64,000 nucleotides of DNA, taken from the NCBI GenBank assembly GCA_018821365.1, contig JAHJML010000174.1, positions 10,067 to 74,066 of the forward strand, in the 5' to 3' direction. The notes below the pieces were generated by a model. The model saw nothing but the letters and a program-made list of their open reading frames with translations, was not told where the DNA came from and did no database searches. Both the position numbers and the translations under genes were made by a program. This document shows positions 3,400 through 34,059 of the stretch, piece after piece; positions within the stretch are counted from its first letter, which is position 1; each line of letters opens with the position of its first letter. The stretch is from Actinomycetota bacterium (GTDB lineage Bacteria; Actinomycetota; Acidimicrobiia; Spongiisociales; UBA11373).

Positions 3400-5440
<2,041 letters not shown>

Positions 5441-5448
<8 letters not shown>

Positions 5449-5842
5449 GCGGGCGCGCAAGATCGCTGCTTGGGTGGTCACCCTCGGTCTGGTGGCAACC
5501 GTGGTCTGGGGCTTCCTGGCCGGCGAACCGACGGAGAGCGACCGGGTGTTCGCCCTCGGCGCCCGCATCAAGTGCCCGGTATGCCAGGGGGAGTCGATCC
5601 AGGAGTCGCCGTCGGAGACCGCCATGGCGATGCTCGACGTGGTGGCCGAGAAGGTCGAGGCCGGGCAGACCGACGAGCAGATCCTCGAGTACTTCACCGA
5701 TCGATACGGGGACGGAATCCGCCTCGATCCGCGCTTCGAGTTCCGAACGATGCTGCTGTGGCTGCTGCCGGCCGCCGCGCTGATCGGGGGCGGGTTGATG
5801 ATCTGGAGCCGGCGCCGCCGGCCGGGAGAGGAACCGTCATGA
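5441..5842 (+). CDS. ccmH: cytochrome c-type biogenesis protein CcmH
   Basis: GTG start overlaps the ccmF TGA (GTGTCTGA). N-terminal TM; the LRCxxC-type motif RIKCPVCQGESI; C-terminal TM. Confidence 0.8.
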
Positions 5843-6657
5843 CCGATAGCGACGACATCCGCCGCCGGGCCCTCGAGGAGCGGGCGCGGCTCGCCCAACA
5901 GGACATCGAAGACCTGCGGCGCCAGGTCGACGAAGGCGAACTGGAGGAGGCCGATGCTGCCGCGCTCGAGGAGCGCTACCGGTCGGACCTCGATGCCGCC
6001 CGCACGAGCCTGGCCGGCATGCCGAAGCCCCGCAAGAGCGCTCCTCCCGCCACGGCGCCCAGCGCCGCCGGCGGAGCCACCGCCGCCGGCAAACCGAACC
6101 GCATCCCTCTGATCGTCGTCATCTCCGCCGCCGCCATGGTGGTGTTGACCATCGCCATCGTGGTGATGGCCACCAGCGGCAACGACGCCGAGACCACGAC
6201 CGACTCCGCGACGCCTCAGGCCGCAACCGGATCGCTGGCGGAGATGGAGGCGGCGGTCGCTTCCCAGCCGGACAACAACACCATGCGGCTGGCCCTGGCG
6301 GGCCTGTACTTCGAATCCGGCGACTACATGAACGCCATGAACCACTACTCGAGCGTGACCGCCAACGACCCGACGCCCCAGGACGCTGCGGTCGCCAACG
6401 CCAGGATCGGTTGGATGGCCTGGGCGGCGCTCGATGACCCGGAGACCGCGCTGTCGTTCCTTGATGCGGCGATCGCGCTCGACCCCACCTACGGCGAGGC
6501 GATCCTGTGGAAGGCCGTCGTGCTCCTCTACGGGATGGACGATGGAGCTGCGGCCGCCCCTCTCTTGGAGCAGGTGCTGGCCTTCCCGGACCTGCCCGAG
6601 GAGCTCAGGCCGGACATCCAGTCCATGCTCGACGAGGCCCGAGGAGGCGGCCAATGA
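5839..6657 (+). CDS. CcmI/CycH-like TPR protein (putative apocytochrome chaperone)
   Basis: ATG overlaps the ccmH stop (ATGA). Acidic coiled-coil N-terminus, one TM (IPLIVVISAAAMVVLTIAIVVMA), then TPR-like helical repeats (LALAGLYFESGDYMNAMNHY...). Placed between ccmH and ccmG. Confidence 0.45.
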   Translation: MTDSDDIRRRALEERARLAQQDIEDLRRQVDEGELEEADAAALEERYRSDLDAARTSLAGMPKPRKSAPPATAPSAAGGATAAGKPNRIPLIVVISAAAMVVLTIAIVVMATSGNDAETTTDSATPQAATGSLAEMEAAVASQPDNNTMRLALAGLYFESGDYMNAMNHYSSVTANDPTPQDAAVANARIGWMAWAALDDPETALSFLDAAIALDPTYGEAILWKAVVLLYGMDDGAAAAPLLEQVLAFPDLPEELRPDIQSMLDEARGGGQ

Positions 6658-7235
6658 CCGATGCTCAGCTCAAGGGCCGCCGGCCGATCTTCTGGATCTC
6701 GGTCGGCGCCGGCCTGGTCGCGTTGATCCTTCTGGCGGTTGCCCTCGCCGATGGGTTCGGGCGGGATCCCCGGGAGCCCGAGAACATCGCCAACCAGGGC
6801 GCCAAGATCGACATGACCAGGGTGCTGCCGTTGCTCGATGGGACGGGCGATGTGGCCTTCTCCGAACTGGAGGGGAAGATCATCGTGATCAACTTCTGGG
6901 CCTCCTACTGCATCCCGTGCCGGGCCGAGCATGAGGTGCTGACCACCGCATCGGAGCAGTATCGGGATCAGAACGTCCAGTTCCTCGGCATCGTCTTCCA
7001 CGACGACCCGGACGCCGCCCGTGACTTCCTCGACACCCTCGGCTGGGGCGACGGGTATCTCTACGCGGAGGATCCCGGGGCGCGGGCCACCGTGGACTTC
7101 GGGGTGTGGGGGGTACCGGAGACCTACTTCGTCGATGCCACCGGCACCATCGTCGACAAGCATTACGGAGCGATCACCCGCGACGACCTCATCCCCGTGC
7201 TCGAATCCATCCTGGCAGGCGACTCGGCCGGCTGA
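6654..7235 (+). CDS. ccmG: thiol:disulfide oxidoreductase CcmG/DsbE (TlpA/ResA family thioredoxin)
   Basis: ATG overlaps the ccmI stop (ATGA). N-terminal TM anchor; thioredoxin fold with active site WASYCIPC. Confidence 0.75.
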   Translation: MTDAQLKGRRPIFWISVGAGLVALILLAVALADGFGRDPREPENIANQGAKIDMTRVLPLLDGTGDVAFSELEGKIIVINFWASYCIPCRAEHEVLTTASEQYRDQNVQFLGIVFHDDPDAARDFLDTLGWGDGYLYAEDPGARATVDFGVWGVPETYFVDATGTIVDKHYGAITRDDLIPVLESILAGDSAG

Positions 7236-7331: not shown

Positions 7332-8456
7332 GTGAAGGCGCAAAGAACTCACGTTTGGAGAGGATGGCGTCTCGTCGTCCTCGGGTGTGGCGCCGCCGCC
7401 GCGGCGCTGGTGCTGGTCGTGACGACGGGTTCGGCTTCTGCACAGGAGGAACAGGCCCCCCAGTTCGACAGCGAGTACTGCCTCGGTTGCCACGCCAACC
7501 CGGGAATGCAGACGACGCTGCCCTCCGGCGAGGTGCTCGACCTGACCTTCGATGTCGCCGCCCACGAGGCATCCGTCCACGGCCCCTACGACATCCCGTG
7601 TGTCCTGTGCCACACCGACGTCACCGGCTTCCCCCACGAACCGCTCGACGTGGCGGACCTGCGGGTCTGGACCCTCGAGCGAAACCAATCGTGCGCCAAC
7701 TGCCACGAGGACGAGGCGGAGAGCGCCCGGGACAACGTGCACGCCGCCGCGCTCGCCACCGGGGTGCGCGAGGCGGCGGTCTGCACCGACTGCCACGACG
7801 CCCACAATGCCCGCAAGCCGGTGGCGCACACGCCGGAGGTGGCCGAGACCTGCGGTGAGTGCCACGGCGAGATCTACCAGTTGTACGAGGGATCGGTCCA
7901 CGGCGAGGCACTCGCCACCGGTAATCGCGACGTTCCCACCTGCACCGACTGCCACGGGGTGCATGACGTCGGGGGTCCCAGCCAGTCAGAGTTCCACCTG
8001 TTCTCGCCGCAGATCTGCGCCGGGTGCCACCAGGACAAGGAGTTGATGGACCGCTACGGCGTCCGGGCCGACACCTTCGACACCTACATCGCCGATTTCC
8101 ACGGTGAGACGGTGGTGCTGTTCGAGGCGCTGGCGCCGGGTCAGGAGACCAACAAGCCGGTCTGCATCGACTGCCACGGGGTCCACAACATCCAGAGCGC
8201 CGACAATCCCGACAGCCAGACGTTCAAAGACAACATCCTCGGCACCTGCCAGCGCTGTCATCCCGATGCGTCGATCAACTTCCCCTCGGCATGGCTGGGC
8301 CACTACACCCCCTCGGCCGACAACGCCCTGCTGGTGTGGCTGGCCGGTTGGTTCTACAAGATCGTCATCCCGGTGACCATCGGCGGGATGCTCGGCTATG
8401 TCGTGCTGCTGAGCTTCAGGAGCAGGCGCTCCCGCAAGGAGGCCGCCCGTGGCTGA
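7332..8456 (+). CDS. nonahaem c-type cytochrome, signal peptide plus C-terminal TM anchor
   Basis: Nine CxxCH: CLGCH, CVLCH, CANCH, CTDCH, CGECH, CTDCH, CAGCH, CIDCH, CQRCH. N-terminal signal peptide and C-terminal hydrophobic helix. GTG start with GGGGAGA RBS. Confidence 0.85.
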   Translation: MKAQRTHVWRGWRLVVLGCGAAAAALVLVVTTGSASAQEEQAPQFDSEYCLGCHANPGMQTTLPSGEVLDLTFDVAAHEASVHGPYDIPCVLCHTDVTGFPHEPLDVADLRVWTLERNQSCANCHEDEAESARDNVHAAALATGVREAAVCTDCHDAHNARKPVAHTPEVAETCGECHGEIYQLYEGSVHGEALATGNRDVPTCTDCHGVHDVGGPSQSEFHLFSPQICAGCHQDKELMDRYGVRADTFDTYIADFHGETVVLFEALAPGQETNKPVCIDCHGVHNIQSADNPDSQTFKDNILGTCQRCHPDASINFPSAWLGHYTPSADNALLVWLAGWFYKIVIPVTIGGMLGYVVLLSFRSRRSRKEAARG

Positions 8457-9888
8457 TCGCTACCGCAGGTTCAACCTCTCGGATCGCCTCGAGCACGTTG
8501 CCCAGTTGACCGCCTTCACCGCACTGGCGGTCACCGGCTTGGTGCAGCGCTACTCGGAGGCCTGGCTGTCGCGGCGCCTCATCGACCTGCTTGGTGGCAT
8601 CGAGGCCGTCCGGATCATCCACCGAATCTTCGCCACGATCCTGATGGTGGCCGTCGTCTACCACCTGGGTGCGATCGGCTACCGCAAGTTCGTGCAGCGC
8701 CGCCCCAGGGAGATGCTCCCCACCAGCGCCGACATCCGGGCGGCCGCTCATTCGATGCGGTACCTGGCCGGCCGCGAGGCCGCCCCGCCTCTTCAGGGCC
8801 GTTTCACCTGGGAGGAGAAGGTCGAGTACTTCGCCCTCGTCTGGGGGACGTTCGTGATGATCGTGAGCGGTTTCCTGCTGTGGAACCCGATCGCCACCTC
8901 CAGGCTCCTCCCCGGGCAGTTCGTCCCGGCCGCCAAGGTGTTCCACAGCGGAGAAGCCCTGCTGGCCGTGCTGGCGGTGATCGTGTGGCACATGTACCAC
9001 GTCCACATCAGGCGCTTCAACACCTCGATGTTCACCGGATACATGAGCCGCCGGGACATGGCCCACGAGCACGCCCTGGAACTCGAGGCGATCGAAGCGG
9101 GCACCGCCTTCACGCCCCCGACCGACGATGCGTCTCGCCGCCGGGCCAAGATCTATCTGCCCGCCATCACCGGCGTGGCCGCCATCTTGCTGGGCGGCAT
9201 CTACCTGTTCGTCACCTTCGAGAACACCGCCATCGCCACCATCGATCCCCCCGAGCAGGTGGCCATCTATGCGCCGGTCGAGACCACCGGGACCACCGGG
9301 GCCACCGTGGTGACCACCACGACCCTCCCGGGTGCGACGACATCGACCACGACTCCGCTGGGAGCGTGGGAGGACACCATCGAGGCGATCTTCCGCACCC
9401 AGCGCTGCACGGATTGCCACGGCAACACCATGGCGCTGGGCGGCGTCGACCTCGCCACCTACGCTGGGGTGCTGGCCGTGGTCACTCCCGGTGATCCCGA
9501 CCGGAGCCCCCTGATCGTGCTGCAGGAGAAGGGGGCCCACCCGACGGTCCTCGACGACGGGCAACTGGCGCAGGTGCGGGCTTGGATCGCCGCCGGCGCC
9601 CTCGAGGCGCTGGGTGGCACTCCCCCGACGGGGGTGCCCGGCGGTGCGCCCGGTTGGGAAGACCCGATCTCCGGCTTGCTCGCTTCGTGCGGCTCGTGCC
9701 ACGGCGCTGCCAATCCGGCGGCGGGGCTCGACCTGACCAGCTACGAGGCTGCTCTCGCGGTGATCACTCCCGGGGACCCGGACGCCTCACGGCTCTACGT
9801 GGTCCAGGCCGCCGGGGGCCACCCGGGGCAGCTCAGCGAGGCCGACCTGGCCGTCCTCAGGGAGTGGATCGCGGCAGGCGCCCCGTAG
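8449..9888 (+). CDS. dihaem b-type membrane cytochrome (HydC/FdnI / Ni-Fe hydrogenase cytochrome-b family) fused to two c-haem domains of PSCyt1 type
   Basis: GTG start overlaps the upstream stop (GTGGCTGA). Four or five TM helices with His pairs (RIIHRIF, HMYHVH). A Thr-rich linker follows, then CTDCHGNTMALGGVDLATY... and CGSCHGAANPAAGLDLTSY..., i.e. CxxCHG-(x)n-GLDL[TS]SY modules. Confidence 0.8.
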   Translation: MADRYRRFNLSDRLEHVAQLTAFTALAVTGLVQRYSEAWLSRRLIDLLGGIEAVRIIHRIFATILMVAVVYHLGAIGYRKFVQRRPREMLPTSADIRAAAHSMRYLAGREAAPPLQGRFTWEEKVEYFALVWGTFVMIVSGFLLWNPIATSRLLPGQFVPAAKVFHSGEALLAVLAVIVWHMYHVHIRRFNTSMFTGYMSRRDMAHEHALELEAIEAGTAFTPPTDDASRRRAKIYLPAITGVAAILLGGIYLFVTFENTAIATIDPPEQVAIYAPVETTGTTGATVVTTTTLPGATTSTTTPLGAWEDTIEAIFRTQRCTDCHGNTMALGGVDLATYAGVLAVVTPGDPDRSPLIVLQEKGAHPTVLDDGQLAQVRAWIAAGALEALGGTPPTGVPGGAPGWEDPISGLLASCGSCHGAANPAAGLDLTSYEAALAVITPGDPDASRLYVVQAAGGHPGQLSEADLAVLREWIAAGAP

Positions 9889-9988: not shown

Positions 9989-10006
9989 TAGGGCCAGAGG
10001 TCCCTA
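9989..10006. promoter_or_regulatory. imperfect palindrome TAGGGCC-AGAG-GTCCCTA, 55 nt upstream of the ImcH-like gene (site c; an extra GTCCCT half-site lies immediately upstream)
   Basis: Read directly. It is the reverse complement of the arrangement at sites a and b. Confidence 0.4.
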
Positions 10007-10061
10007 TGAGCGAGCACCTCCCATCTCCTAGCGTGGGTCCAGCACAGAGGGGAGACGTGAA

Positions 10062-11666
10062 GTGAGCGATCAGACGGACGACGGCATCGTCGAGGAACCC
10101 GCCGGCACCGACGGGATGAACCAGGTCCCGCCGACCGGGGCGCCGCCCGGCAAGGACGCCGACGGCCGTTCCCCCACGAACATCTTCACTTTCCCGATGA
10201 CGGCCATCGGGGGTGGCATGGTGCTCGCCGGTGTGGTCGCCTTCTTCGTTCTGATGCTGATCGACCTGACCAGCCAGACCGAGAACCCGTATCGGGCCAT
10301 CGTCACCTGGCTGGCGATCCCGGCGGTCATCACCCTTGGTCTCGTGATCGCAGTGATTGGGATCGTCGTCCGATCCCGGATGGCCCGGCGCCGCGGGGAG
10401 AGCATCCGATTCCTGCTGCGGATCGAGCCCTCCAACCCTCGCTACATGCGCAACCTGTGGCTGTTCCTCGGGTTGGCGGCCGTCCTGATCGTCCTGGTCG
10501 CCTACGGCGGCATACGTGCCTATGAGACCACCGAATCGGTCGCCTTCTGCGGAGAGGCGTGTCACGAGGTGATGGGGCCCCAGAACACCACCTACCTCGC
10601 ATCCGCCCACGCCAGGGTCCCCTGCACCGAGTGTCACATCGGCCCGGGACGGTCCTTCTGGGTCAAGTCCAAGCTCGACGGCATCCGCCAGGTGTGGAAG
10701 ACGATGACCAACACCTTCGACCGTCCGATCGCAACCCCGGTGACCAGTCTGCGCCCCGCCCAGGAGACCTGCGAGCACTGTCACTGGCCCGAGCAGTTCT
10801 ACGGGCAGCAGTTGGTGAACCTCAGCTACTACCGGAGCGACGAGGCCAACTCGCCGTGGACGATCAGCCTGCTGGTCAACGTGGGCGGCGGGAACCCCCG
10901 CACCGGTACCGCCGAGGGCATCCATTGGCACATGATCACCAACAACACCATCGAGTACATCGCCGTGGATCGCGATCGCCAGGAGATTCCGTGGGTGCGC
11001 CTCAACCGGGAGGACGGGACCCAGGTGGTGTACGCCGATCCGGACGCCGGCATCGGCCCCGACTCCCCCGGGGTCGAGGTCCGCACCTTCGACTGCATCG
11101 ACTGCCACAACCGGCCGAGCCACACGTTCGAGCCGCCGGCGACCGCCATCAACCTCCGCATCGCCCAGGGCAGCATCTCCCGGGACCTGCCGTTCATCCG
11201 CCGGGTGGGCCTCGACCTGCTCAACGCCGAATACCAGACCACCCCGGAGGCCAACGAGGCCATCCCGGCCGGCTTGGTGGCCTTCTACGCGGCGGAGTAC
11301 CCCGACGACGTAGAGGCGTTTCGGGCGGACATCGATCGGGCGGCAGAGGCACTGGTGAAGATCTACGACGGCAACTTCTTCCCCGAGATGAAGACCGACT
11401 ACCGGGTGCGGGTGAACAACCTGAGCCACTTCACCAACGACGGCTGCTTCCGGTGCCACAACACCGACCTCGTCTCCGACCAGGGCATCGGCATCGGCAC
11501 CGCCTGCGACACCTGCCACTCGATCGTGGCGCAGGGGCCCTCGGAGGACGTCAACGAGTTGCAGAGTGACCTGGGTGGCCTGGAGTTCGAGCACCCGGTC
11601 GACATTGGCGGCGTATGGGATCGTATCAAGTGCACCCAGTGCCACACCCCCGCTCAGGGGTACTGA
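10062..11666 (+). CDS. heptahaem NapC/NirT-family c-type cytochrome with two N-terminal TM helices (ImcH-like)
   Basis: Seven CxxCH: CGEACH, CTECH, CEHCH, CIDCH, CFRCH, CDTCH, CTQCH. N-terminal TM helices; the first two haems have NapC/NirT-like spacing. GTG start, RBS AGGGGAGA. Confidence 0.8.
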   Translation: MSDQTDDGIVEEPAGTDGMNQVPPTGAPPGKDADGRSPTNIFTFPMTAIGGGMVLAGVVAFFVLMLIDLTSQTENPYRAIVTWLAIPAVITLGLVIAVIGIVVRSRMARRRGESIRFLLRIEPSNPRYMRNLWLFLGLAAVLIVLVAYGGIRAYETTESVAFCGEACHEVMGPQNTTYLASAHARVPCTECHIGPGRSFWVKSKLDGIRQVWKTMTNTFDRPIATPVTSLRPAQETCEHCHWPEQFYGQQLVNLSYYRSDEANSPWTISLLVNVGGGNPRTGTAEGIHWHMITNNTIEYIAVDRDRQEIPWVRLNREDGTQVVYADPDAGIGPDSPGVEVRTFDCIDCHNRPSHTFEPPATAINLRIAQGSISRDLPFIRRVGLDLLNAEYQTTPEANEAIPAGLVAFYAAEYPDDVEAFRADIDRAAEALVKIYDGNFFPEMKTDYRVRVNNLSHFTNDGCFRCHNTDLVSDQGIGIGTACDTCHSIVAQGPSEDVNELQSDLGGLEFEHPVDIGGVWDRIKCTQCHTPAQGY

Positions 11667-11687
11667 TCGGCACCTAGCCGCCAACTC

Positions 11688-11724
11688 GAGAGGCCCCGGG
11701 TTCCCCCTCTACCCGGGGCCTCTC
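11688..11724. terminator. GC-rich hairpin (14-bp stem GAGAGGCCCCGGGT/ACCCGGGGCCTCTC, 9-nt loop) between convergent genes; candidate bidirectional terminator
   Basis: Perfect inverted repeat read directly. Lies between the stop of the ImcH-like gene (11666) and the stop of the bc-complex operon (11819). Confidence 0.5.
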
Positions 11725-11818
11725 TGCGCGGCATCCCGGGTGCACCGGGCTAACCCGGCAGCGGCTCGTCGACAACGACACCCGCCGGCGCCTGAGCGAG
11801 CCTGTGCGGCCGTGCCGC

Positions 11819-13912
11819 TCAGTTGTCGGGTGCCCCCTGGCGGATCCAGGCGAGGATCGCATCCACCTCGGTGGTCGGGAGGGACCCGGAGGGCGGCATG
11901 AACCCGCCTGTCCCGGTGCCGAGCAGCCATTGGCCGAGGAGGCTGTTCTCCGCATCGCCGGGGATGACCGCGGGTCCGCTGTTGCCGCTCGCCATCACCG
12001 ACTGGTACGACTCGGCCGACCATCCGCCGGACGCTCCGTGGCACGCCAGGCACTTCGACTGGAAGATGGGCAGCACGTCGCCCGAGAAGGACACCTCCGC
12101 AACCGGCCCGGGGGTGCCCGGTCCGCCCTGCAGCGAGCGGATCAACTCGACCAGTCCGGAGATCTGCTCGTCGGTGAGGATGTCCCCCCAGCCGATCATG
12201 GCGGTGGCCGGGTGGCCGAGGTCGATCGTCTCGAACAACTGGCTGTCGGAGTGGATCGCCTGCCACTCCGGAGATTGGAACGAAGGCCCGATCCCGCCCT
12301 CCCCGTCGGCGCCGTGGCATTGGGCACAGAACCCTGCGTAGATGTCGGCGACATCCACCAGCAACGGGGCCCGCTCGACCGCCGGCGGGAGCTCGACCGG
12401 AGGGTTGTCCTGCCAGGACCGGATGTAGGCGACGATCGCCCCCACCTCGTCGGCGTCCAGGGGGCCGCCGAAGGCCAGGCCGAAGGGTGACATCCCCGAG
12501 TCGGGCTGCCCCTGGGTGATGATGGCCCTGATGGTGATGTAGTCGCGGGTCACCAGGTACTGCTCGGTGCTGATCGGGCCGATCGTGAAGGATGGATCGA
12601 CCGGGCTGGCCCCTCCCTCCCCGAACTCGCCGTGGCACACCGTGCAGTGCTGCTCGAACAGGGTCTTTCCGAGCACGGCAGGCGAACCCTGGCTGGCCTC
12701 ATAGGCGTAGTCGGTCAGGGCGTCCAATTGCTCGGCGGTGAGCACGTCGCCCCAGACCGGCATCGTTTGGTGGGAACCACCCTTGACGATGATCTCGGTG
12801 GCGGCTTCCACCGACTCGGCCACCGGAACCCGGGTTCCGTGGCACACGGCGCAGTCGGCCTCGAAGAGGGCAGCACTCGAAGCGGGCGCCGTGTCGGGGG
12901 CCACCACGTAGGCGGCCAGAGCGGCGATGTCGGCATCGGGGAGGACTCCGCCCATCGCCGGCATCGTCAGATGCCCCCCACCCTTCTCGATGATCGCCAG
13001 CAACTCGTTGCGCGTTCCGGCGAACTGGGCGCTGTTGCCGTGACAGGCGGCGCAGTTGAGCACGAACAGACGGTGTCCGTCGGGTGCGATGAGGAAGTTG
13101 ACGAGGGCGGTCGCCGAACTCTCGTCGAGCGAGGGGAGGTCGAGGCCCGCGTGCGGTTCGAACTCCGAGCCGGGCTGGAGGGCCGCCCGGAGGGTGAGCG
13201 GTTGGGTGGCAGCCAGGCCGACCGCCTGGTGGCACCCCGAACAGGAGTCCTGGAACACGGCGCTGCCGTTGGGCGAGAGGACGAAGCCGACCAGGGCGTC
13301 GATCTCGTCTGAGGAAAGGTCGCCGCTCCAGGCCGGCATCCCCTCGTGGCCGCCCTGGGAGATCACGTCGCCGAGATTGACTCCGGCGGGAACGGCGATC
13401 GAGGTGCCGTGGCACCCCGAGCAGTTCTCGGTGTAGAGGAGGGCGACCGGGTCGCCGCCGGCGGCCTCGAGGGGCGGTTCCGCCGCCAGCAGCGCCTGCA
13501 CGGTGAGGCCCAGCACCCCGAGGAAGAGGAACACCACGAACCCGAGGACGATGGGACGCCCCCGGATGTTGCGGGTGCGGGATCGATCCAGCCATGGGAG
13601 TGCCGCCAGGATGAGGAGGATCGCCCCGGGCAGGATGATCACGCCGACAAACTCCAGGTTCCCCGGGAAGAACTTGAGCAACTGGAAGAGCCAGAGGAAG
13701 TACCACTCGGGCCGGGGTGTGAACGAGTCGTCGGACGGGTTGGCCTGGTCGCCCAGTTCGGCACCGATCACGGCGGAGAGCACCACCAACGCCACGAACA
13801 CCAGCAGGGAGACTATGGCGTCCTTGAACAGGGCGTTGGGGAAGAACGGGATGCCCCGCTTCTTGTCCTCCTGGTACTTCTCCAGGTAGTCACGCCTGTC
13901 CTGTTCCCGCAT
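11819..13912 (-). CDS. cytochrome b C-terminal domain (subunit IV / QcrC-like) fused to seven class-I cytochrome c domains
   Basis: N-terminus has three TM helices and the PEWY motif (PEWYFLWLFQLLKFFP) of cytochrome b / subunit IV. Then seven CxxCH (CSGCH x2, CAACH, CAVCH, CTVCH, CAQCH, CLACH), each followed about 40-60 aa later by a Met-Pro axial-ligand-like motif. Confidence 0.85.
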   Translation of the reverse strand: MREQDRRDYLEKYQEDKKRGIPFFPNALFKDAIVSLLVFVALVVLSAVIGAELGDQANPSDDSFTPRPEWYFLWLFQLLKFFPGNLEFVGVIILPGAILLILAALPWLDRSRTRNIRGRPIVLGFVVFLFLGVLGLTVQALLAAEPPLEAAGGDPVALLYTENCSGCHGTSIAVPAGVNLGDVISQGGHEGMPAWSGDLSSDEIDALVGFVLSPNGSAVFQDSCSGCHQAVGLAATQPLTLRAALQPGSEFEPHAGLDLPSLDESSATALVNFLIAPDGHRLFVLNCAACHGNSAQFAGTRNELLAIIEKGGGHLTMPAMGGVLPDADIAALAAYVVAPDTAPASSAALFEADCAVCHGTRVPVAESVEAATEIIVKGGSHQTMPVWGDVLTAEQLDALTDYAYEASQGSPAVLGKTLFEQHCTVCHGEFGEGGASPVDPSFTIGPISTEQYLVTRDYITIRAIITQGQPDSGMSPFGLAFGGPLDADEVGAIVAYIRSWQDNPPVELPPAVERAPLLVDVADIYAGFCAQCHGADGEGGIGPSFQSPEWQAIHSDSQLFETIDLGHPATAMIGWGDILTDEQISGLVELIRSLQGGPGTPGPVAEVSFSGDVLPIFQSKCLACHGASGGWSAESYQSVMASGNSGPAVIPGDAENSLLGQWLLGTGTGGFMPPSGSLPTTEVDAILAWIRQGAPDN

Positions 13913-13916
13913 ACGG

Positions 13917-14576
13917 CTACTCCCCCTTCTTGGGAGGCGCCGAGATGCCGTTGCGCACCACCAGGTAGAGGTGGAGGCCCACCAGGAGCAGCAGGATCGC
14001 CGGCAGCACCCACACGTGGATCCCGTAGAAGCGGGACAGGGTCACCGCGCTCAGGTCGTCCCCGCCCCTCGCCACCCGCAGCGCCCAGTCACCGATGAGC
14101 GGCGTCACCTCCAACATGCGGGTGCCCACCACGGTGGCCCAGTAGGCCTTCTGGTCCCAGGGAAGCAGGTACCCGGTGAACCCGAACGCCAGCGTCAGTA
14201 CCAGCAGCCCCACCCCCGACAGCCAGGTGATCTCCCGCGGGAACTTGTACGCCCCGTGGTAGATCACCCGCACCATGTGGAGCCCGACCAGCAGGACCAT
14301 GGCGCTGGCCCCCCAGTGGTGCATGCCCCGGATCAGCCACCCGGCGGTCAGGTCGTGGGAGATGAAGTCGACGGTGGCGTAGGCATCCTGGACACTGGGC
14401 ACGTAGTAGATGGTGAGGAGGATCCCGGTGATGATCTGATTGACCACCACGATCAAGGTGGCGCTGCCGAGGGTGTAGGCCCAGTTGACCTTGGGCACCT
14501 GGCGGAGGAACACCCCATCCCAGACGAGGCGCCACCCGGTTCGCTCATCCAGCCAGCCGCCGACCCGGTCGCTCAT
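13917..14576 (-). CDS. cytochrome b6 (N-terminal four-helix dihaem-b domain of a split cytochrome b)
   Basis: 219 aa with conserved His pairs in helices B and D (GMHHWGASAMV..HMVRVIYHG ... FYGIHVWVLP) and the TGYLLPWDQ motif. Confidence 0.9.
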   Translation of the reverse strand: MSDRVGGWLDERTGWRLVWDGVFLRQVPKVNWAYTLGSATLIVVVNQIITGILLTIYYVPSVQDAYATVDFISHDLTAGWLIRGMHHWGASAMVLLVGLHMVRVIYHGAYKFPREITWLSGVGLLVLTLAFGFTGYLLPWDQKAYWATVVGTRMLEVTPLIGDWALRVARGGDDLSAVTLSRFYGIHVWVLPAILLLLVGLHLYLVVRNGISAPPKKGE

Positions 14577-14577
14577 C

Positions 14578-15051
14578 TCACGCCTCCAGGCTCACGAAGA
14601 TCTGGCCGTCCTCCACCTTGACGGGGAACTCATCCAGACCCCTCGGCGGCGGGCCGGCGACCACCTGCCCGTCGACACTGAAGACGCCGTTGTGACAGGG
14701 GCAGAAGAACTCGTTCTGGTCGGCGACCCAGCGGACCCGGCACCCGAGGTGCGTGCAGACGTTGGAGAACCCCCTGAACTCGCGACCGTCGTGGGTGACG
14801 ACGTAGACGGCCACCTCCGCCTCGGTGGAGACCCATCCACTGGTCTTGGTGACCTTCGCCTTGAAGAGGGAGGGCGTTCCAATGTCGACTCGATCAGCGG
14901 CGCCGAGTACGATCCACTCCGCCTCGCCCGTCTTCTTCTTGGCCGGGCTCAGCACGTAGGCAACCCCCGGTACCGCCCAGCCGATCCCGATGGCGGCGGC
15001 AATGGCAACGGTGGCTCTACTGAGGAACTTCCGCCGGTCCATTGGTGCCAT
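14578..15051 (-). CDS. Rieske [2Fe-2S] iron-sulfur protein, Tat-exported
   Basis: Twin-arginine signal RRKFLSRATVAIAAA. Rieske boxes CTHLGC and CPCHNG. Confidence 0.9.
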   Translation of the reverse strand: MAPMDRRKFLSRATVAIAAAIGIGWAVPGVAYVLSPAKKKTGEAEWIVLGAADRVDIGTPSLFKAKVTKTSGWVSTEAEVAVYVVTHDGREFRGFSNVCTHLGCRVRWVADQNEFFCPCHNGVFSVDGQVVAGPPPRGLDEFPVKVEDGQIFVSLEA

Positions 15052-15190
15052 GGTGCTCGCCCTTCCCCGGAAACCCCGTCGTTCGGCATTCCTAGCGGAA
15101 AGCGTTCGGCGCGCCGTCCACCCGGGACGTTCGGACTCTAGCCAGCGCCTCTCACGTCCGCAGCCGTGTCGGAAAGGCGTCCGCCGGACG

Positions 15191-15223
15191 CCAAGGGGCC
15201 CGGGATGACCCCGGGCCCCTTGG
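15191..15223. terminator. GC-rich hairpin CCAAGGGGCCCGGG-atgac-CCCGGGCCCCTTGG downstream of the decahaem cytochrome gene
   Basis: 14-bp perfect stem read directly. Lies between the decahaem gene stop (15242) and the Rieske start (15051). No U-tract, as is common in high-GC genomes. Confidence 0.45.
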
Positions 15224-15241
15224 TCCTTGCGAGAGGTGCGA

Positions 15242-17362
15242 CTACGGCCGGGTGTAGCCGGTCACATCCCCACCGACGTTCTCGATCGAGTCGATCAGCA
15301 ACTGGATCACGTACTTGCCGTTGTGGGCGAATCCACCCGGATCCTTGACGGCGTACTGGTAGTTGTAGGCCGAGCCAAGCAGCGCCGGTGTCCACATGCC
15401 GAACGCCTCATCACCACTGAAGAAGTACGGATACCGGTTCGGGTCGTAGATCAGGTCCCCGAGGCCGTATGCCTCGGAATAGGCCTGGAGCGCTGCGTAG
15501 AGGTCAGCCCGGAGGGTGTCGATCTCTCCGTACAGTCCTTCGGCCGCGTCCCCGTCACCGTCGAAGTCGCCCTCGCTGATGCGGAACGCCATCGGGTCGT
15601 CGCTGCCGTGGCAGCCTGCGCACGACTCGACCTTGACCTCCAGGGTGTGGGACCCATGGCATTCGGTGCAGGTGTCGAAACCCTCGACATGGGCATTGCG
15701 ACCCGCGTACTCCTTGCCGGCGAACTGGAACCCGCCCTGCACCTCCCCTCCGAACAGGGTCGCCCCTGCTGGGAAGTAGTGCACGTTGCGGAACCGCAAA
15801 CCCTCGACGACGTCGTTGGGTCCGGCATCGCCGATGGCCGCATTGACGCTGACCGTGGACTCGCGTCCCTGGTGGCAGTTCATGCAGAGATTGCCGTCGG
15901 CGCTCCCGCTGTCGACCTCGAGCCCGCTCGGGAACTCGACTGGGCCTGCCTCGTGGCGAGTCCAGGTGGTGAAGTCGTTGTGGCAGGTCGAGCACAGGAA
16001 GCCGTTGCTGGGCTCCTGGCTGACGGTGACGCCCTCAGCGAGGAACAGCGGCAAGCCGGCTGCACTGTGGCACTTGGAGCACGACGCCGGCACCACTGCC
16101 GGGTCGTCCTCGTCCCAGTGGCGGAAGGCCTCCTCAGAGCCGGCGAAGTGCCCATGGTCGATGCGATGGGCCGCATCGACGGCGATCGGGCTGCTCAGCA
16201 CCGAGTTGAGGTCCTCGGTGGAGTCGCTCAGCAACTGGAGGATGTACTTGCCGCCGTGGGCGAACGCCCCCGGATCCTTCAAGGCCACCTGATAGTTGTA
16301 CGCCGCCCTCACGAGGCGCGGAGTCCAGGCCGGGTAGGCATTGCCGAAGTTGGCCTCGCCCTCGGTCACGGCCCCGTCGCCGTCGGTGTCGGCGAAGAAG
16401 TACGGATAGGTCAGACCGTCGTAGACAAGCCCGGTGCCCACGGTCTCGGAGGCATACGCCTGCATCGCCAGATACAGCGTGGCGGTCGCGCCCTCGATCT
16501 CGTAGTAGATGCCTTCGGCCAGGTCGCCGTCGCCGTCGTAATCGACCAGAGAGCCCATCATGCGGACGTTCTTCAGGTCGTCCGCCGAGGTCACTCCGAC
16601 GTGACACGTGGCGCATTCCTCGATCTTGAGTTCGAGGCTGTGCGGATTGTGGCAATCCACACAGGTCTCGTAACCCTCGATGTGGGTGAAGAAGGCGTCA
16701 TAGGTCCCGCCTTCGTACTGGTAGCCGCCCATCGCCTCGTTGCCGTACTTGGTGGCTGCGGCGGCAAAGTAGTGGATGTTGATGAACCCGAGATCTTCGC
16801 TGACTTCGTCGTCACCAACGCCGGCGGCGGTGATCGCCTCGTCCACCGTCACCTTGGATGCCCTGCCCTGGTGGCAGGTCATGCAACGAGCCTCTGCACC
16901 CAGGCCGGTCAGCTCGACACCGGATGGCATCGTCACGCTGTCCAGGGCCAGGGTGGCCGCGTTGTGACAGGTCGTACAGGTGATGGTCGTGTCGGGATCG
17001 TGGGCAGCGTCGACGACTCCGGCAGCGCTCCCGTCGGCGCCGACGAAGTCCTGGAAGCCGGTACCGACGTGGCACTTGGCACAGGACTCGGGCACGACCG
17101 CCGGGTCGTCCCCGTCCCAGTGTCGGAAGGCTTCGGCGTCGGCGGCATTGTGGGCAGACGCCTCCCATGCTGCGAGGAACGGGATCTCGACCGCAGGCTC
17201 CACCACCACGGGGACCGTGGTGGTGGTCGCCGGCGCCTCGGTGGTGGTCACCGGGGCGGCGGTCGTAGTCGTTCCTGCGTCGTCGCCGCTACAGGCGGCG
17301 ATGACCAGGGAGAGGGCTGCGAGCAGTGCGCCGATCGTCGACAGCCTGGATCGATGGGTCAT
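15242..17362 (-). CDS. decahaem c-type cytochrome lipoprotein with internal pentahaem duplication
   Basis: Lipobox LSLVIAACSG followed by a Thr-rich linker. Ten CxxCH: CAKCH, CTTCH, CMTCH, CVDCH, CATCH, CSKCH, CSTCH, CMNCH, CTECH, CAGCH. The two halves are clearly homologous (AFRHWDGDDPAVVPESCAKCH vs AFRHWDEDDPAVVPASCSKCH). Confidence 0.85.
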   Translation of the reverse strand: MTHRSRLSTIGALLAALSLVIAACSGDDAGTTTTAAPVTTTEAPATTTTVPVVVEPAVEIPFLAAWEASAHNAADAEAFRHWDGDDPAVVPESCAKCHVGTGFQDFVGADGSAAGVVDAAHDPDTTITCTTCHNAATLALDSVTMPSGVELTGLGAEARCMTCHQGRASKVTVDEAITAAGVGDDEVSEDLGFINIHYFAAAATKYGNEAMGGYQYEGGTYDAFFTHIEGYETCVDCHNPHSLELKIEECATCHVGVTSADDLKNVRMMGSLVDYDGDGDLAEGIYYEIEGATATLYLAMQAYASETVGTGLVYDGLTYPYFFADTDGDGAVTEGEANFGNAYPAWTPRLVRAAYNYQVALKDPGAFAHGGKYILQLLSDSTEDLNSVLSSPIAVDAAHRIDHGHFAGSEEAFRHWDEDDPAVVPASCSKCHSAAGLPLFLAEGVTVSQEPSNGFLCSTCHNDFTTWTRHEAGPVEFPSGLEVDSGSADGNLCMNCHQGRESTVSVNAAIGDAGPNDVVEGLRFRNVHYFPAGATLFGGEVQGGFQFAGKEYAGRNAHVEGFDTCTECHGSHTLEVKVESCAGCHGSDDPMAFRISEGDFDGDGDAAEGLYGEIDTLRADLYAALQAYSEAYGLGDLIYDPNRYPYFFSGDEAFGMWTPALLGSAYNYQYAVKDPGGFAHNGKYVIQLLIDSIENVGGDVTGYTRP

Positions 17363-17425
17363 GTCACTCCTCCCGCAAGGTGCGGCTAACTACCCGATAT
17401 CCTTGCAGCCCCGCATGCCGCCGCT

Positions 17426-17443
17426 TAGGGACTTTCGGCCCTA
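17426..17443. promoter_or_regulatory. imperfect palindrome TAGGGAC-TTTC-GGCCCTA, 63 nt upstream of the decahaem cytochrome start (site b); also 182 nt upstream of the divergent PQQ dehydrogenase gene
   Basis: Read directly; near-identical to site a. Confidence 0.4.
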
Positions 17444-17625
17444 ATCGACCGGGTGTCGGATTCGCCGGTTCCGGCAGGGCATCGGCCGATCGGCATCGTG
17501 CTGGTGGAGCCCAGGGTTGCCTCCGCGGCGGAACCCGTGGCCGGGTCGATCTCGCGGTGGGGGCGCACCACCAACCGGGAGTCGACGCGGCGTCGTGACG
17601 GCTTCCCTGGCATCATGAGGCCTCC

Positions 17626-18990
17626 ATGACCGTCCGTCCCCCCACTCGCCGGCCCGAAGAGCGCTTCCCGGGATTCCTCTTCACCCCCGCCAATCGTCCG
17701 TTCACATTGATCCTGGTCGTTGCCGTGGCTGTCCTGGCAGGCTATCTGCTGGTGGGAGGCGACTCGGGATCGACGGCTGCCCCCTCCTCGACCACGGTCG
17801 CCGGGCCGGCGACCAGCACCGCCGAGACGGATTCCACCGCCGGGACCACCCAGGATGCCACCACCACCTCACCGACGGTCGCTCAATCGGGAGTCACCGA
17901 GGCGGCCGACATCCCGCTGCAGGGTCTGGCGCTGGAGACCGTGGCACGGGGGTTCACCTTCCCGGTCTACGCAACCTCGCCGCCCGGCGACGGGAGGGTG
18001 TTCGTTGTGGAACGGGCCGGCCTCATCCGCATCGTCGATCCCGGCGGGAGTGTGCTGCCGAACCCCTTCCTCGACATAAGCGACCGCATCGACAGCGCCA
18101 GCGGTATCGAGTTGGGCCTCCTCGGCCTCGCCTTCCACCCTCAGTACGCCGCCAACGGGCGTTTCTTCGTCTACTACTCGGATCTGAACGCCGACTCGGT
18201 GGTCGCCGAGTTCTCGACGAGCGCCGACCCGAACCTGGCCGATCCGGATTCCGAGCAGGAGATACTGTTCGTGGATCAGGTTCGCCTCCGCCACCGCGGT
18301 GGCATGCTGCTCTTCGGACCCGACGGCTACCTCTACATCGGCCTCGGCGACGGCACCGACCACAACGTGAACCCGCAGAACCTCGAGACCCTGCCGGGCA
18401 GCATCCTCCGCATCGACATCGACGGCGGGGATCCCTATGCGATCCCCGCCACCAACCCCTTCGCATCGGCCGAGGGCAGGCCGGAGATCTGGGCGTACGG
18501 GTTCCGCAATCCGTGGCGGTTCTCCATCGACCCCGTGAGCGGCCGCCTCTACGTCGGAGATGTCGGTGAGGAGTCGTGGGAGGAGATCGATTCCGTCGCT
18601 CTCTCCAACTCGGGGAGCAACTTCGGGTGGCCGCTCATGGAGGGGTCCACCTGCTTCACCGACGCCGAGTGCGGGAGCCGGACCGATCTGGTCCGGCCGA
18701 TCCTGCAGTACCCCCACGAAGGAGACCAGTGCGCGGTCACCGGCGGCTACGTCTACCGGGGGTCGGCGATCCCCGAGATGGTGGGGCACTACTTCTACGC
18801 CGACTGGTGCGCCGGGTGGATCCATTCGTTCCTCTACGACGGCGAGAACGTCACGCTGCCCCAGGATTGGTCGGTCTCGATCGGAACCGACCACGGGTCG
18901 ATCGCCTCGTTCGGCCTCGATGGTGCCGGTGAGTTGCTGGTGGTCACTTCCGACACCGGTGACATCTTCCGGGTGGTCGCGGCCCGTTGA
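17626..18990 (+). CDS. PQQ-dependent sugar (glucose/sorbosone) dehydrogenase family beta-propeller, membrane-anchored
   Basis: N-terminal TM, Ser/Thr-rich linker, then a sGDH-like propeller (GFTFPVYATSPPGDGRVFVVERAGLIRIV..., GFRNPWRFSID). Confidence 0.7.
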   Translation: MTVRPPTRRPEERFPGFLFTPANRPFTLILVVAVAVLAGYLLVGGDSGSTAAPSSTTVAGPATSTAETDSTAGTTQDATTTSPTVAQSGVTEAADIPLQGLALETVARGFTFPVYATSPPGDGRVFVVERAGLIRIVDPGGSVLPNPFLDISDRIDSASGIELGLLGLAFHPQYAANGRFFVYYSDLNADSVVAEFSTSADPNLADPDSEQEILFVDQVRLRHRGGMLLFGPDGYLYIGLGDGTDHNVNPQNLETLPGSILRIDIDGGDPYAIPATNPFASAEGRPEIWAYGFRNPWRFSIDPVSGRLYVGDVGEESWEEIDSVALSNSGSNFGWPLMEGSTCFTDAECGSRTDLVRPILQYPHEGDQCAVTGGYVYRGSAIPEMVGHYFYADWCAGWIHSFLYDGENVTLPQDWSVSIGTDHGSIASFGLDGAGELLVVTSDTGDIFRVVAAR

Positions 18991-31881: not shown

Positions 31882-34059
31882 TTAGGAGGCGGCTGCCACC
31901 AGGCCCGGGAATCCATTACCGAACTGGATACCGGACAGGGTATTCGTGAACGGGTACTGAATCGTGGCCGAGCGATAGGCCTCGATGATGCCCGTATCGA
32001 ACAGCAAGATGTAGGGCTTCTGCGTGAACAGAATCTCTTCCATCTGCCACATGATGTCGTAGGCCTCTTCGAAGGTCTTGGCGGCGTTGAACTCCTCGAC
32101 GAGGGCGTTGAACTCCGGGTCGTTGAACCCGGTGTTGTTGTTGCCGTCGTTGATGAGGGTGTCGTTCTTGCCGGCCCAGAAGGACTCGTGGTAGGTCGGG
32201 AGCGCCGGGTTGCCCAGGCTCCAACCGAGCATGAACATGTCGAAGTCGAGGTTGCCCTCGTCATCGGGCACGAACACTGCATTCACGAGGACGTTGAAGT
32301 CCGTCGGGTACGCCGTGGCGTTGAACCCGAGGTCCTTGGCGGCCTGCGCCACGAACAGTGAGAACGTCGCCCGCAGCGGGTCATACCCGGGTCCGGGCGC
32401 CAGGATGGTGATCTCCTGGACCGGAGCGCCGTCGAGCATGATGCCCTTGCCGGGGACGATCGCATTGTCGGCGAAGCCCGGCTCCTGGCCCTCGGGCCAG
32501 CTGAACCCGTCTGCCATCAGCGCCGAGACGGCGGCATGGAGGCGAGCCTCGGTGCCGGTTGCCGTGTAGGCCACGTCGTCTTCGGTGCCGAGCTCTTCGT
32601 CCTCGCCTGCTTCCATGAACGGCGTGCCGTCGTAGCGGGTGTCCAGCGCGAGATCGGTGATCTCGGCCTGCCACGCATCGGCCAACTCGGCGTTGTACCA
32701 GCTGGTGTTGCCTTCTGGCACGGTCGCGTAGAGCGGGAACGCCACACCCTGCAGCACGCTGCCGGTGATGTATTCCTTGTCGATCATGAACGCCAACGCA
32801 TCCCGGAAGCCCTGGCGGGCCATCGGGTCGCGGCGCATGTTGAAGGCCAGGTACCGGAAGCCGTTCGTCGCGTTGACGATCGGCGTCAGGTTGGCATCGC
32901 CGGTGATCTGGTCGAGCAAGCCACGCTGGAGGCCCAGCGGGTTGTACAGGTAGTCCACCTCGCCGGCCTTGAGGGCCAGCACGGCGGCGCTCTGGTCGCC
33001 GTACAGCTCGAAGGTCTGGTCACCGATGAACGGGCCGGTCGTGAAGTCCACTCCACCGGAGGAGACTGCACGGCCGTTGTCGTAGTAGTCCAGGTTGCCC
33101 ACGGACTCCGCAAAGGCACCGGCCTCGCGTGCGAAGAAGATCGTGGGGCCGCCGGACGCATCACCTGCGCCGGAAGCGGCATACAGAACCTCGGCCGGGT
33201 CCTCGGATGCCTTGGCATCCTCGGCGACCGCCTGCCAGGCAGCCTTCGACATGACCGGAGCCACGCCGACGCTGTAGGGCCAGATGGCCAGGCCGGGATC
33301 CTTGTTCCACGTGAACTTGACCGTGAAGTCGTCGACGGCCGTGACGCCGATCAGACCCAGCGCATCGCTGAACTCGCCGGTCGCTTCGTCGGTCTGCGCC
33401 CACTGGTAGCTGGCGACCCAGTTGCCGCCCAGGGCGAACTGGCAGACGGTGTCCGCCGTAAACACGACATCGTGCGCCGTGATCGGCGTGCCATCGCTCC
33501 ACGTGACGTCGGTCCGCATCGGGACGGTGACGGAGAACCCGTCGCCGTCGGCTGCGGCAACGCCCGGATCATCCGAAGTGGCCAGGTCGTTGGTGAGATC
33601 CAGGCCCGGCAGGTTGGTGCCGAACAGGGCGGGCTTGGTCGGGCCGAGCAGGTAGGCGTTCCACACCGTGCTCTGCGGGTCCATGTAGGCCCAGTAGTTG
33701 TCGGTCGTCGTGTCCTGGAAAATGCCGGTGCGATACACCGTGCCGCCCGCCGCCGCATACGCCGGTGGCGCATAGGCCGTGGTGTCGTACGGCGTATCAG
33801 GCTGACACGCATTCACATACACGATTTCCGGGAGAGCCTCGGTGGTCGTCGTCTCCTCCACGGCCGTCGTCGTCGGGGCCTCGGTGGGTTCCGTGCCTTC
33901 CGTCGTCGTTGGGGCTTCGGTGGGTTCCGTGCCCTCCGTGGTGGTCGTCGCTGCCGTTGCCGCGGTCGTCCCGGTATCGTCGTCGCTGCACGCCGAGACC
34001 ACCATCGCCAGCGCGGCGAAGATGACCATCAGGCGCAGCACCCGATTCCGTTTGTTCAT
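31882..34059 (-). CDS. ABC transporter substrate-binding lipoprotein (family 5, peptide/nickel/oligosaccharide type)
   Basis: Lipobox MVVSACSDDD. Thr/Pro-rich tandem-repeat linker (TTTEGTEPTEAPTTTEGTEPTEAPTTT). Large SBP_bac_5-like body. Confidence 0.8.
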   Translation of the reverse strand: MNKRNRVLRLMVIFAALAMVVSACSDDDTGTTAATAATTTTEGTEPTEAPTTTEGTEPTEAPTTTAVEETTTTEALPEIVYVNACQPDTPYDTTAYAPPAYAAAGGTVYRTGIFQDTTTDNYWAYMDPQSTVWNAYLLGPTKPALFGTNLPGLDLTNDLATSDDPGVAAADGDGFSVTVPMRTDVTWSDGTPITAHDVVFTADTVCQFALGGNWVASYQWAQTDEATGEFSDALGLIGVTAVDDFTVKFTWNKDPGLAIWPYSVGVAPVMSKAAWQAVAEDAKASEDPAEVLYAASGAGDASGGPTIFFAREAGAFAESVGNLDYYDNGRAVSSGGVDFTTGPFIGDQTFELYGDQSAAVLALKAGEVDYLYNPLGLQRGLLDQITGDANLTPIVNATNGFRYLAFNMRRDPMARQGFRDALAFMIDKEYITGSVLQGVAFPLYATVPEGNTSWYNAELADAWQAEITDLALDTRYDGTPFMEAGEDEELGTEDDVAYTATGTEARLHAAVSALMADGFSWPEGQEPGFADNAIVPGKGIMLDGAPVQEITILAPGPGYDPLRATFSLFVAQAAKDLGFNATAYPTDFNVLVNAVFVPDDEGNLDFDMFMLGWSLGNPALPTYHESFWAGKNDTLINDGNNNTGFNDPEFNALVEEFNAAKTFEEAYDIMWQMEEILFTQKPYILLFDTGIIEAYRSATIQYPFTNTLSGIQFGNGFPGLVAAAS

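Follow-up and report, generated by a model that had tools for sequence, protein, structure and literature searches.

A duplicated pentahaem cytochrome lipoprotein of Acidimicrobiia as a candidate electron conduit, and its conserved linkage to quinol-oxidising membrane cytochromes

Cytochrome-based export of electrons from cells without an outer membrane has been worked out only in a few thermophilic Firmicutes (Thermincola and Carboxydothermus), and the locus studied here raises the question of whether other single-membrane bacteria possess a comparable system. The window, by which we mean the whole stretch of 64,000 nucleotides that was analysed (contig JAHJML010000174.1, positions 10,067 to 74,066, from an Actinomycetota bacterium of the class Acidimicrobiia), encodes at 15242 to 17362 on the minus strand a c-type cytochrome lipoprotein with ten haem-binding motifs. 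This decahaem protein is exported and lipid tethered and has a fold shared with NrfA and OcwA, and its gene is linked to genes for quinol-oxidising cytochromes and for the Ccm (cytochrome c maturation) machinery. We give roughly an even chance to the reading that it is an extracytoplasmic electron conduit or terminal reductase fed by menaquinol oxidases. The most informative evidence, missed by a preliminary description of this DNA, is the conserved linkage of the gene to quinol-oxidising membrane cytochromes.

The open reading frame, which begins with ATG and comprises 706 codons and a stop, is a genuine gene: the G+C content at third codon positions is 0.85, an identical protein has been deposited at NCBI from an Actinobacteria metagenome-assembled genome, and a word-indexed search recovered more than 4,900 homologues. 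The nearest relatives are annotated as Acidimicrobiia, and a GGAGG stands a few bases upstream of the start codon. Residues 1 to 24 (17291 to 17362, minus strand, as are all parts of the gene) read as a signal peptide ending in a lipobox (LVIAAC24, with a hydrophobic segment at residues 7 to 25 and I-A-A-C24 as the lipobox proper). A linker rich in threonine, alanine, and proline follows (residues 25 to 58; 17189 to 17290) and is modelled as disordered, with a predicted local distance difference test score (pLDDT) below 50 for residues 25 to 51. The remainder consists of module 1 (residues 59 to 392; 16187 to 17188), which has five CxxCH motifs and a three-helix bundle in an NrfA-superfamily fold, and a second pentahaem module, module 2 (residues 393 to 706; 15245 to 16186), delimited by self-alignment, AlphaFold2, and Foldseek. 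The ten CxxCH motifs start at residues 94, 129, 160, 234, and 250 in the first module and at 428, 457, 493, 565, and 581 in the second. Of the 21 cysteines, 20 bind haem and the other is the lipobox Cys24, so that none is spare. The preliminary description had proposed a decahaem lipoprotein built by duplication of a pentahaem unit, with a lipobox followed by a threonine-rich linker, and these features stand. In the self-alignment that it suggested, the halves align over 321 columns, of which 152 are identical (47%; E = 7e-90), and the three conserved blocks that it quoted are all found in both halves.

Threonine-rich, low-complexity linkers after a signal peptide or lipobox also occur on unrelated secreted proteins of the window (31882 to 34059 and 35286 to 37070, both on the minus strand), the first of which is a substrate-binding lipoprotein. 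Because unrelated secreted proteins share it, we regard the linker as an organism-wide envelope habit, and it was ruled out as a mark of extracellular electron transfer. Loops of the DxDGDGD type (residues 272 to 279, 325 to 331, and 599 to 605) precede the first long helix of each module, and the core residues of those at 272 to 279 and 599 to 605 are invariant or nearly so. As judged from their sequence, they resemble calcium-binding sites, and one homologue (P0111) has a Pfam EF-hand_5 match. NrfA enzymes bind Ca2+ too, at positions other than those of these loops.

The genes most often found beside the decahaem gene form a pair, encoded in the window on the plus strand. The first (7332 to 8456) specifies a nine-haem cytochrome c, with as many CxxCH motifs and with a transmembrane helix at the C-terminal end, and the stop codon of this gene overlaps the start of the second (8449 to 9888), which specifies an FdnI-like dihaem cytochrome b (Pfam Ni_hydr_CYTB; match to FdnI, PDB 1kqf_C, E = 3.4e-7) followed by a threonine-rich linker and two PSCyt1-type c-haem domains. 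At 10062 to 11666, also on the plus strand, lies a gene for an ImcH/NrfH-like membrane cytochrome of 534 amino acids with three transmembrane-like segments, one CX3CH motif, and six CX2CH motifs. This protein matches Pfam NapC/NirT, and its N-terminal region is NrfH-like (NCBIfam NrfH, 55.6 bits, below the cut-off; PDB NrfH 2j7a_C, E = 5e-4). In Geobacter, CbcL (nine haems and a HydC/FdnI-like cytochrome b) and ImcH (three transmembrane helices and seven haems) are the inner-membrane quinol oxidases for extracellular electron transfer (PMC6295460). At the level of architecture, the nine-haem cytochrome and FdnI-like cytochrome b together reproduce CbcL, and the seven-haem protein with three transmembrane helices reproduces ImcH. 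Two differences from Geobacter CbcL are the division of the unit between two genes and the additional c-haem domains on its cytochrome b. The division may explain why Actinobacteria and Chloroflexi yielded no CbcL homologues in a 2018 survey (PMC6295460).

In 43 related loci with at least 8 kb of sequence on both sides, we compared the genes that lie up to about 10 kb from the decahaem gene. A homologue of the nine-haem cytochrome c occurs in 36 of the 43 loci and the FdnI-like cytochrome b in 34; in 23 loci the latter lies within 1.5 kb of the decahaem gene, 21 times on the same strand. The ImcH-like cytochrome is present in 20 loci, and at least one of these three or a cytochrome b6 is found in 41. 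Linkage to genes of quinol-oxidoreductase type is kept in two phyla. In the cultured Anaerolineae strain Thermanaerothrix solaris 4228-RoL, the genes for the decahaem protein (lipobox LVGC), the nine-haem cytochrome, and the FdnI-like cytochrome b follow one another (locus L054, 9959 to 14771, taken from positions 646680 to 668821 of NZ_JAUHMF010000001.1) with gaps of 4 and 3 nt, in an apparent operon. From the neighbour counts and this operon we conclude that the core unit comprises the decahaem protein and a split CbcL-like quinol:cytochrome oxidoreductase.

In the window, genes for a further candidate quinol-oxidising complex lie downstream of the decahaem gene on the same strand. A gene for a Rieske [2Fe-2S] protein with a Tat signal (14578 to 15051; Pfam Rieske, E = 9.5e-11) begins 190 nt beyond the decahaem gene; its NCBIfam matches to the Tat signal and to the b6f iron-sulfur subunit are below the cut-off. 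It is followed by genes for a cytochrome b6-type subunit of 219 amino acids (13917 to 14576; Pfam Cytochrome_B, E = 3.5e-50) and for a 697-amino-acid protein in which a subunit-IV domain is fused to seven class-I monohaem cytochrome c domains (11819 to 13912; Cytochrom_B_C and six Cytochrome_CBB3 stretches, three transmembrane-like segments, seven CxxCH motifs). The b6-type subunit scores 230.6 bits against NCBIfam cytochrome b6 and 222.9 bits against Geobacter ExtP, both below the cut-off, and the Rieske/b6 pair recalls Geobacter ExtO/ExtP. For a Rieske/cytochrome b complex, seven fused class-I domains are a chain of built-in c haems of uncommon length; the same fusion, of about 700 amino acids, also occurs in two Anaerolineales loci (L002 and L086). 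Among the 43 loci, a Rieske gene is linked to the decahaem gene in 10 and a cytochrome b6 gene in 9. The Rieske operon is therefore a frequent but optional neighbour, and we rejected it as the primary partner of the decahaem protein.

Two further gene arrangements were seen beside decahaem genes. On a contig of "bacterium BMS3Abin02" (L084), genes at 8050 to 9847 (UbiA/MenA-like, ECH_1/MenB-like, and AMP-binding/MenE-like) stand directly before the decahaem gene at 10001 to 12157, a gene order that suggests a link to menaquinone biosynthesis. In the Anaerolineales loci L002 and L003, a region at 12465 to 15400 beside the decahaem gene encodes an NrfD-like membrane protein, a 4Fe-4S protein, and a multihaem cytochrome of 296 amino acids. 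The three together are reminiscent of an alternative-complex-III or Qrc-like unit, which would make them another kind of module that interacts with quinol.

What kind of cytochrome the decahaem protein is becomes clear from its predicted structure. AlphaFold2 models each half as a mostly helical haem domain with three long helices at its end (whole protein, pLDDT 84.7 and predicted template modelling score 0.71; module 2 alone, 87.2 and 0.88). OcwA was the top Foldseek match to the whole protein (E = 8e-4) and to module 2 alone (E = 4.5e-5, probability 1.0, template modelling [TM] score 0.43 to 0.44), and for module 2 it was followed by NrfA chains (E = 0.015 to 0.6) with similar TM scores (0.41 to 0.49). 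No MtrC, OmcA, UndA, or MtrF chain appeared in any Foldseek list. We therefore interpret the protein as a tandem of two NrfA-superfamily pentahaem modules and not as an MtrC-type decahaem cytochrome; of the proteins that the preliminary description had named for a remote-homology search, OcwA was the nearest solved relative by Foldseek, whereas MtrC, OmcA, and UndA were not matched. Searches of curated family libraries gave only generic multihaem matches (cytochrome c7 and c3). The Pfam MtrC/MtrF domain II/IV model (PF22113) reached 29.8 bits against a cut-off of 30, over residues 86 to 168 only, and no NCBIfam model came near its cut-off. Pfam Cytochrom_C552 and NCBIfam NrfA did not match at E <= 0.1, nor did the HAO and OTR family models match in the Pfam and NCBIfam searches. 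Against all PDB sequences, phmmer and a 57-sequence profile retrieved no cytochrome even at E <= 10, including OcwA and OmhA, and yielded only spurious zinc-ribbon matches to uS14. We conclude that the family is a new branch of the NrfA/ONR/HAO/OcwA superfamily, in which an all-CxxCH pentahaem module occurs in one, two, or three copies.

The closest functional precedents are OcwA of Thermincola potens (PDB 6I5B), a nonahaem terminal reductase of the cell surface, and OmhA of Carboxydothermus ferrireducens (PDB 6QVM), for both of which experiments support a role as surface reductases in monoderm bacteria that reduce Fe(III) (PMC6703420, PMC7829351). OcwA and the decahaem protein share the NrfA-like pentahaem module with its C-terminal three-helix bundle, have CxxCH motifs only, and are extracytoplasmic proteins of monoderm bacteria. 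However, OcwA joins a c554-like tetrahaem domain to one NrfA-like module (nine haems), whereas the decahaem protein consists of two such modules (ten haems); OcwA has a cleaved signal peptide in place of the lipid anchor and linker. OmhA has 11 haems, an N-terminal dihaem extension, and an association with the S-layer, and contains no tandem of like modules. The decahaem protein, which has no c554-like domain, no HH dipeptide in place of the OcwA His-His motifs, and no detectable sequence homology to either, does not belong to their family. NrfA also has the pentahaem fold with long C-terminal helices, and an NrfH-like quinol dehydrogenase is encoded near the decahaem gene, but NrfA is a non-covalent homodimer, whereas the decahaem modules are fused in tandem. 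MtrC, OmcA, and UndA of Shewanella are likewise ten-haem lipoproteins that originated by pentahaem duplication, yet their fold is unrelated, with split beta-barrel domains, an MtrAB-type partner, and a different envelope.

The decahaem family is large. In a scan of one genome per species of the Genome Taxonomy Database (GTDB), relatives were confirmed in at least 590 of 599 candidate stretches, which puts the family in no fewer than 590 species genomes. With module 2 as the query, an exhaustive HMMER search among representatives of clusters at 50% identity matched 1,302 of them at E <= 1e-3, and 279 reached E <= 1e-30. The best 80 relatives are nearly all from Anaerolineae (Promineifilaceae, Caldilineaceae, Ardenticatenaceae, and Thermanaerothrix) or Acidimicrobiia. 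Two-module forms are the majority, with ten motifs in 107 of the 120 best homologues. One-module pentahaem relatives of 355 to 390 amino acids keep the motif spacing unchanged, and three-module forms have 14 to 15 haems and a third module that resembles module 2. Between species, mean identity is 64.8% for module 1 with module 1 and 60.1% for module 2 with module 2, compared with 47.7% for module 1 with module 2. The duplication must therefore be older than the radiation of the sampled family, and each module position has been constrained separately. A lipobox-like motif is present in 77 of the 120 best homologues, and those without one have an ordinary signal peptide or an N-terminal anchor. 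Where both ends could be located, the low-complexity linker between lipobox and first module measures 19 to 57 residues (median, 35).

Multihaem cytochromes of Anaerolineae and Acidimicrobiia are numerous and have been noted before, but were never given a role. Large cytochromes of Anaerolineales have been remarked on (PMC7399161), and "a decaheme" is listed in passing, along with two Rieske/cytochrome b complexes, for the Anaerolineae genome RBG-9 (Hug et al. 2013, PMC3971608). The literature searched contained no relevant link between OcwA and Chloroflexi (one match was an unrelated review), and mentioned Thermanaerothrix solaris in a validation list only. Ardenticatena maritima 110S was set aside as a lead, as its largest cytochrome has seven haem motifs (PMC5808234).

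On the reading that we favour, a lipid anchor would hold the decahaem protein on the outside of the cytoplasmic membrane, and its flexible linker of some 35 residues would reach up to approximately 12 nm if fully extended (by simple arithmetic). Menaquinol would be oxidised at the FdnI-like cytochrome b or, alternatively, at the ImcH-like protein or the Rieske/b6 complex. The split CbcL-like pair is the main candidate for the electron donor, the ImcH/NrfH-like cytochrome and the Rieske/b6/subunit-IV-heptahaem complex being further candidates. Electrons could then pass to the membrane-anchored nine-haem protein and on to the decahaem protein, whose linker and two-module body would carry them off the membrane to an acceptor located in the wall or outside it. 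By analogy with what is thought for OcwA and OmhA in Gram-positive Firmicutes, such acceptors might be Fe(III) or Mn(IV) minerals, humics, or shuttles. The two modules probably form one continuous ten-haem chain. They may pack like the subunits of the NrfA homodimer, with their chains joined via the fifth haems and the haem-1 sites at opposite ends, as in the design principle of OcwA. What the data show is the architecture, the fold class, the family size, and the conserved linkage of the genes; which way the electrons flow, what accepts them, how far the protein reaches through the wall, and whether it is the final step are inferred.

Whether haem 1 of each module is an open, catalytic site bears directly on this reading, and conservation of the relevant residues was counted over 57 aligned homologues. 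A local hhalign comparison of a module profile with Escherichia coli NrfA placed motifs 1 to 3 on haems 1 to 3 (probability 41%, E = 2.7e-4 in a single comparison), and haem 1 of each module therefore sits at the position of the NrfA catalytic haem; a global alignment gave a probability of 0.05. The first motifs, CAKCH and CSKCH, align with C122-WSC-K126 of E. coli NrfA. The CxxCK motif is absent from the window protein and from the aligned homologues, in which all ten motifs are invariant CxxCH, and from the 16 of 16 proteins inspected from the representative search. Three residues past the haem-3 histidine, where NrfA has Tyr216 (CHxxY), the protein has Arg167 in an invariant CHQGR. Arg80 is kept in 27 of 57 module-1 sequences, and the corresponding position in module 2, Arg414, is invariant. 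Outside the motifs, both modules keep six histidines, each of them in at least 55 of 57 sequences (71/405, 81/415, 197/528, 227/558, 241/572, and 369/680), compared with the five that we count, by our own reading of the E. coli sequence, in NrfA. Because the local alignment covers motifs 1 to 3 only, the later histidines were mapped by spacing. His227 lies 7 residues before motif 4, as does His275 of E. coli NrfA, to which it presumably corresponds; likewise, we take His71, His197, and His241 to match His94, the catalytic His264, and His301, and His369 to match the histidine of the inter-helix loop. His81 would then be left as an extra residue, presumably near the distal pocket of haem 1, and the six conserved histidines would allow all-bis-His ligation of each module. 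OcwA keeps two open haems under two-His (His-His) pockets (PMC6703420); no HH dipeptide occurs at the positions that match these motifs, the stretch reading I-H197-Y198.

These residues can also be read as those of an enzyme. A tandem NrfA-like reductase or oxidase with one open catalytic haem per module could have a soluble compound as its substrate (nitrite, hydroxylamine, NO, sulfite, tetrathionate, or similar) and be supplied by NrfH-like and/or CbcL-like quinol dehydrogenases, as in NrfHA. We consider this rather unlikely, although the alignment of haem 1 with the catalytic haem, the invariant polar residues at the site of the NrfA distal pocket (H197-Y198, Arg167 of CHQGR, and R414 in module 2), the NrfH-like gene in the cluster (with its relatives near 20 of the 43 decahaem genes), and the weak reduction of nitrite and hydroxylamine by OcwA, the closest relative (PMC6703420), are all in its favour. 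It is opposed by the lack of CxxCK in every protein inspected, by the replacement of the NrfA tyrosine, by the retention of Arg80 in fewer than half of the module-1 sequences, by one more conserved histidine per module than in NrfA, and by the failure of NrfA, HAO, and OTR family models to match. Moreover, the commonest neighbour is the CbcL-like pair and not the NrfH-like gene, and the existence of versions with one, two, and three modules is easier to reconcile with a wire whose length can be adjusted than with a fixed active site. There is also a small chance that the decahaem protein is a dedicated c-type acceptor of the Rieske/b6/subunit-IV-heptahaem complex, resembling cytochrome c1/f or a soluble carrier and serving ordinary respiration via terminal oxidases or reductases. 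Bis-His multihaem proteins usually have low potentials and are hence poor acceptors for a Rieske centre. In favour of this reading, the Rieske gene follows the decahaem gene across a gap that has no terminator-like site, the adjacency recurs in Acidimicrobiia and Anaerolineales loci (e.g., L005, L012, L057, and L002/L003), and the analogous Geobacter cluster ExtMNOPQS (Cbc6), built around a Rieske/cytochrome b complex, includes 10- and 12-haem cytochromes (PMC5877670). Nevertheless, the obligate linkage expected of a cytochrome c1/f-type subunit fails (10 loci for Rieske and 9 for b6, versus 34 to 36 for the CbcL-like pair), and the complex already has seven fused class-I c domains of its own.

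Electrons might instead flow inward, with Fe(II) outside the cell, a cathode, or a partner cell as their source, via the decahaem protein to the quinone pool or the Rieske complex, in a lithotrophic or syntrophic import that we regard as quite improbable. The adjoining Rieske/cytochrome b complex would suit a branching of paths uphill or downhill, by analogy with acidophilic Fe(II) oxidisers. Proteins of the CbcL/MtoC type occur in Fe(III) reducers and Fe(II) oxidisers alike, but those of the ImcH type, one of which is encoded here, have been found only in reducers (PMC6295460). A Chloroflexi isolate produces both anodic and cathodic current (PMC5808234), though its largest cytochrome is the seven-motif protein mentioned above; in the window, no marker of CO2 fixation or Fe(II) oxidation was seen, and sequence alone cannot give the direction of flow. 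That the protein is a homologue of MtrC, OmcA, or UndA transplanted into a Gram-positive envelope is extremely improbable. Ten haems in two pentahaem halves, the lipobox, and the PF22113 score just short of its threshold are what such homology would predict; however, the AlphaFold2 models have no beta-barrel domains, no cysteine is spare for an MtrC-type disulfide, and the genes around the decahaem gene in four annotated neighbourhoods carry no porin-type Pfam annotation such as an MtrB-like protein would have, although no dedicated MtrB search was run. MtrC/OmcA homology was rejected at the level of the fold.

Several observations weigh against a role in electron export. The modelled fold is shared equally with true enzymes (NrfA and ONR), and the NrfH-like gene in the cluster is what an enzyme would also have. 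The extra conserved histidine is no proof of bis-His ligation, because OcwA has open haems under its His-His pockets. The preliminary description had called the protein a candidate "terminal" or "surface" cytochrome, and this part of its proposal is not supported: as read from the sequence, a lipid anchor followed by some 35 residues of linker would put it on or close to the outside of the cytoplasmic membrane and not at the cell surface, and the cluster yielded no further wall or surface cytochrome that would complete an electron path. Of the 120 best homologues, about a third have no lipobox-like motif, and some members, including three-module forms, come from non-monoderm or unplaced lineages (Abyssobacteria and Sulfomarinibacteraceae). 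Many host lineages, such as the Promineifilaceae and Caldilineaceae of activated sludge, are not known metal reducers. The open literature searched contained no paper that characterises the decahaem family.

The value of these findings lies less in the decahaem protein as such than in a widespread, conserved candidate pathway for electron export in two abundant and mostly uncultured lineages, since Anaerolineae and Acidimicrobiia are among the commonest uncultured lineages of sediments, aquifers, and wastewater plants. What is new is a modular multihaem cytochrome of the NrfA superfamily, whose one, two, or three modules contain CxxCH motifs only and whose conserved partner is a split CbcL-like pair. 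The analysis defines a conserved three-gene unit (decahaem protein, nine-haem cytochrome c, and FdnI-like cytochrome b) and provides a structural link to OcwA, and because the unit is present in the cultured T. solaris, extracellular respiration by these lineages is directly testable. More speculatively, the decahaem protein and the split CbcL-like pair may constitute a hitherto unrecognised, cross-phylum extracellular electron-transfer module of single-membrane bacteria, in which two NrfA-fold modules, fused as a covalent pseudo-dimer, would act as a ten-haem wire whose two ends each carry an open haem of the OcwA type, and the number of modules would set its length. We hold this proposal only tentatively. 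If it is true, the module would be the chief route of electron exchange with minerals, humics, or partner cells for Anaerolineae and Acidimicrobiia, both of them abundant in sediment, aquifer, and activated-sludge habitats.

The decahaem gene lies within a respiratory island of 14 kb. Cytochrome c maturation genes occupy 3400 to 7235 on the plus strand, as determined from gene calls and Pfam matches on an identical contig (L001) mapped to the window, and from matches to TPR models; they encode CcmF (3400 to 5448), CcmH (5441 to 5842), a TPR protein (5839 to 6657), and a thioredoxin-like protein (6654 to 7235). A promoter and terminator scan of 14900 to 17700 returned no sites, including in the gap between the decahaem and Rieske genes, and co-transcription with the Rieske operon is therefore neither supported nor excluded. 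Divergent from the decahaem gene, at 17626 to 18990 on the plus strand, is a gene for a protein that resembles pyrroloquinoline quinone-type glucose/sorbosone dehydrogenases (Pfam GSDH, E = 1.4e-41) and has an N-terminal transmembrane segment and a threonine-rich linker. A homologue of this gene adjoins the decahaem gene in an Actinomycetota locus (L004) and lies about 6 kb from it in an Acidimicrobiia locus (L005). Judging from these features, the protein may be an extracytoplasmic dehydrogenase that feeds the cytochromes.

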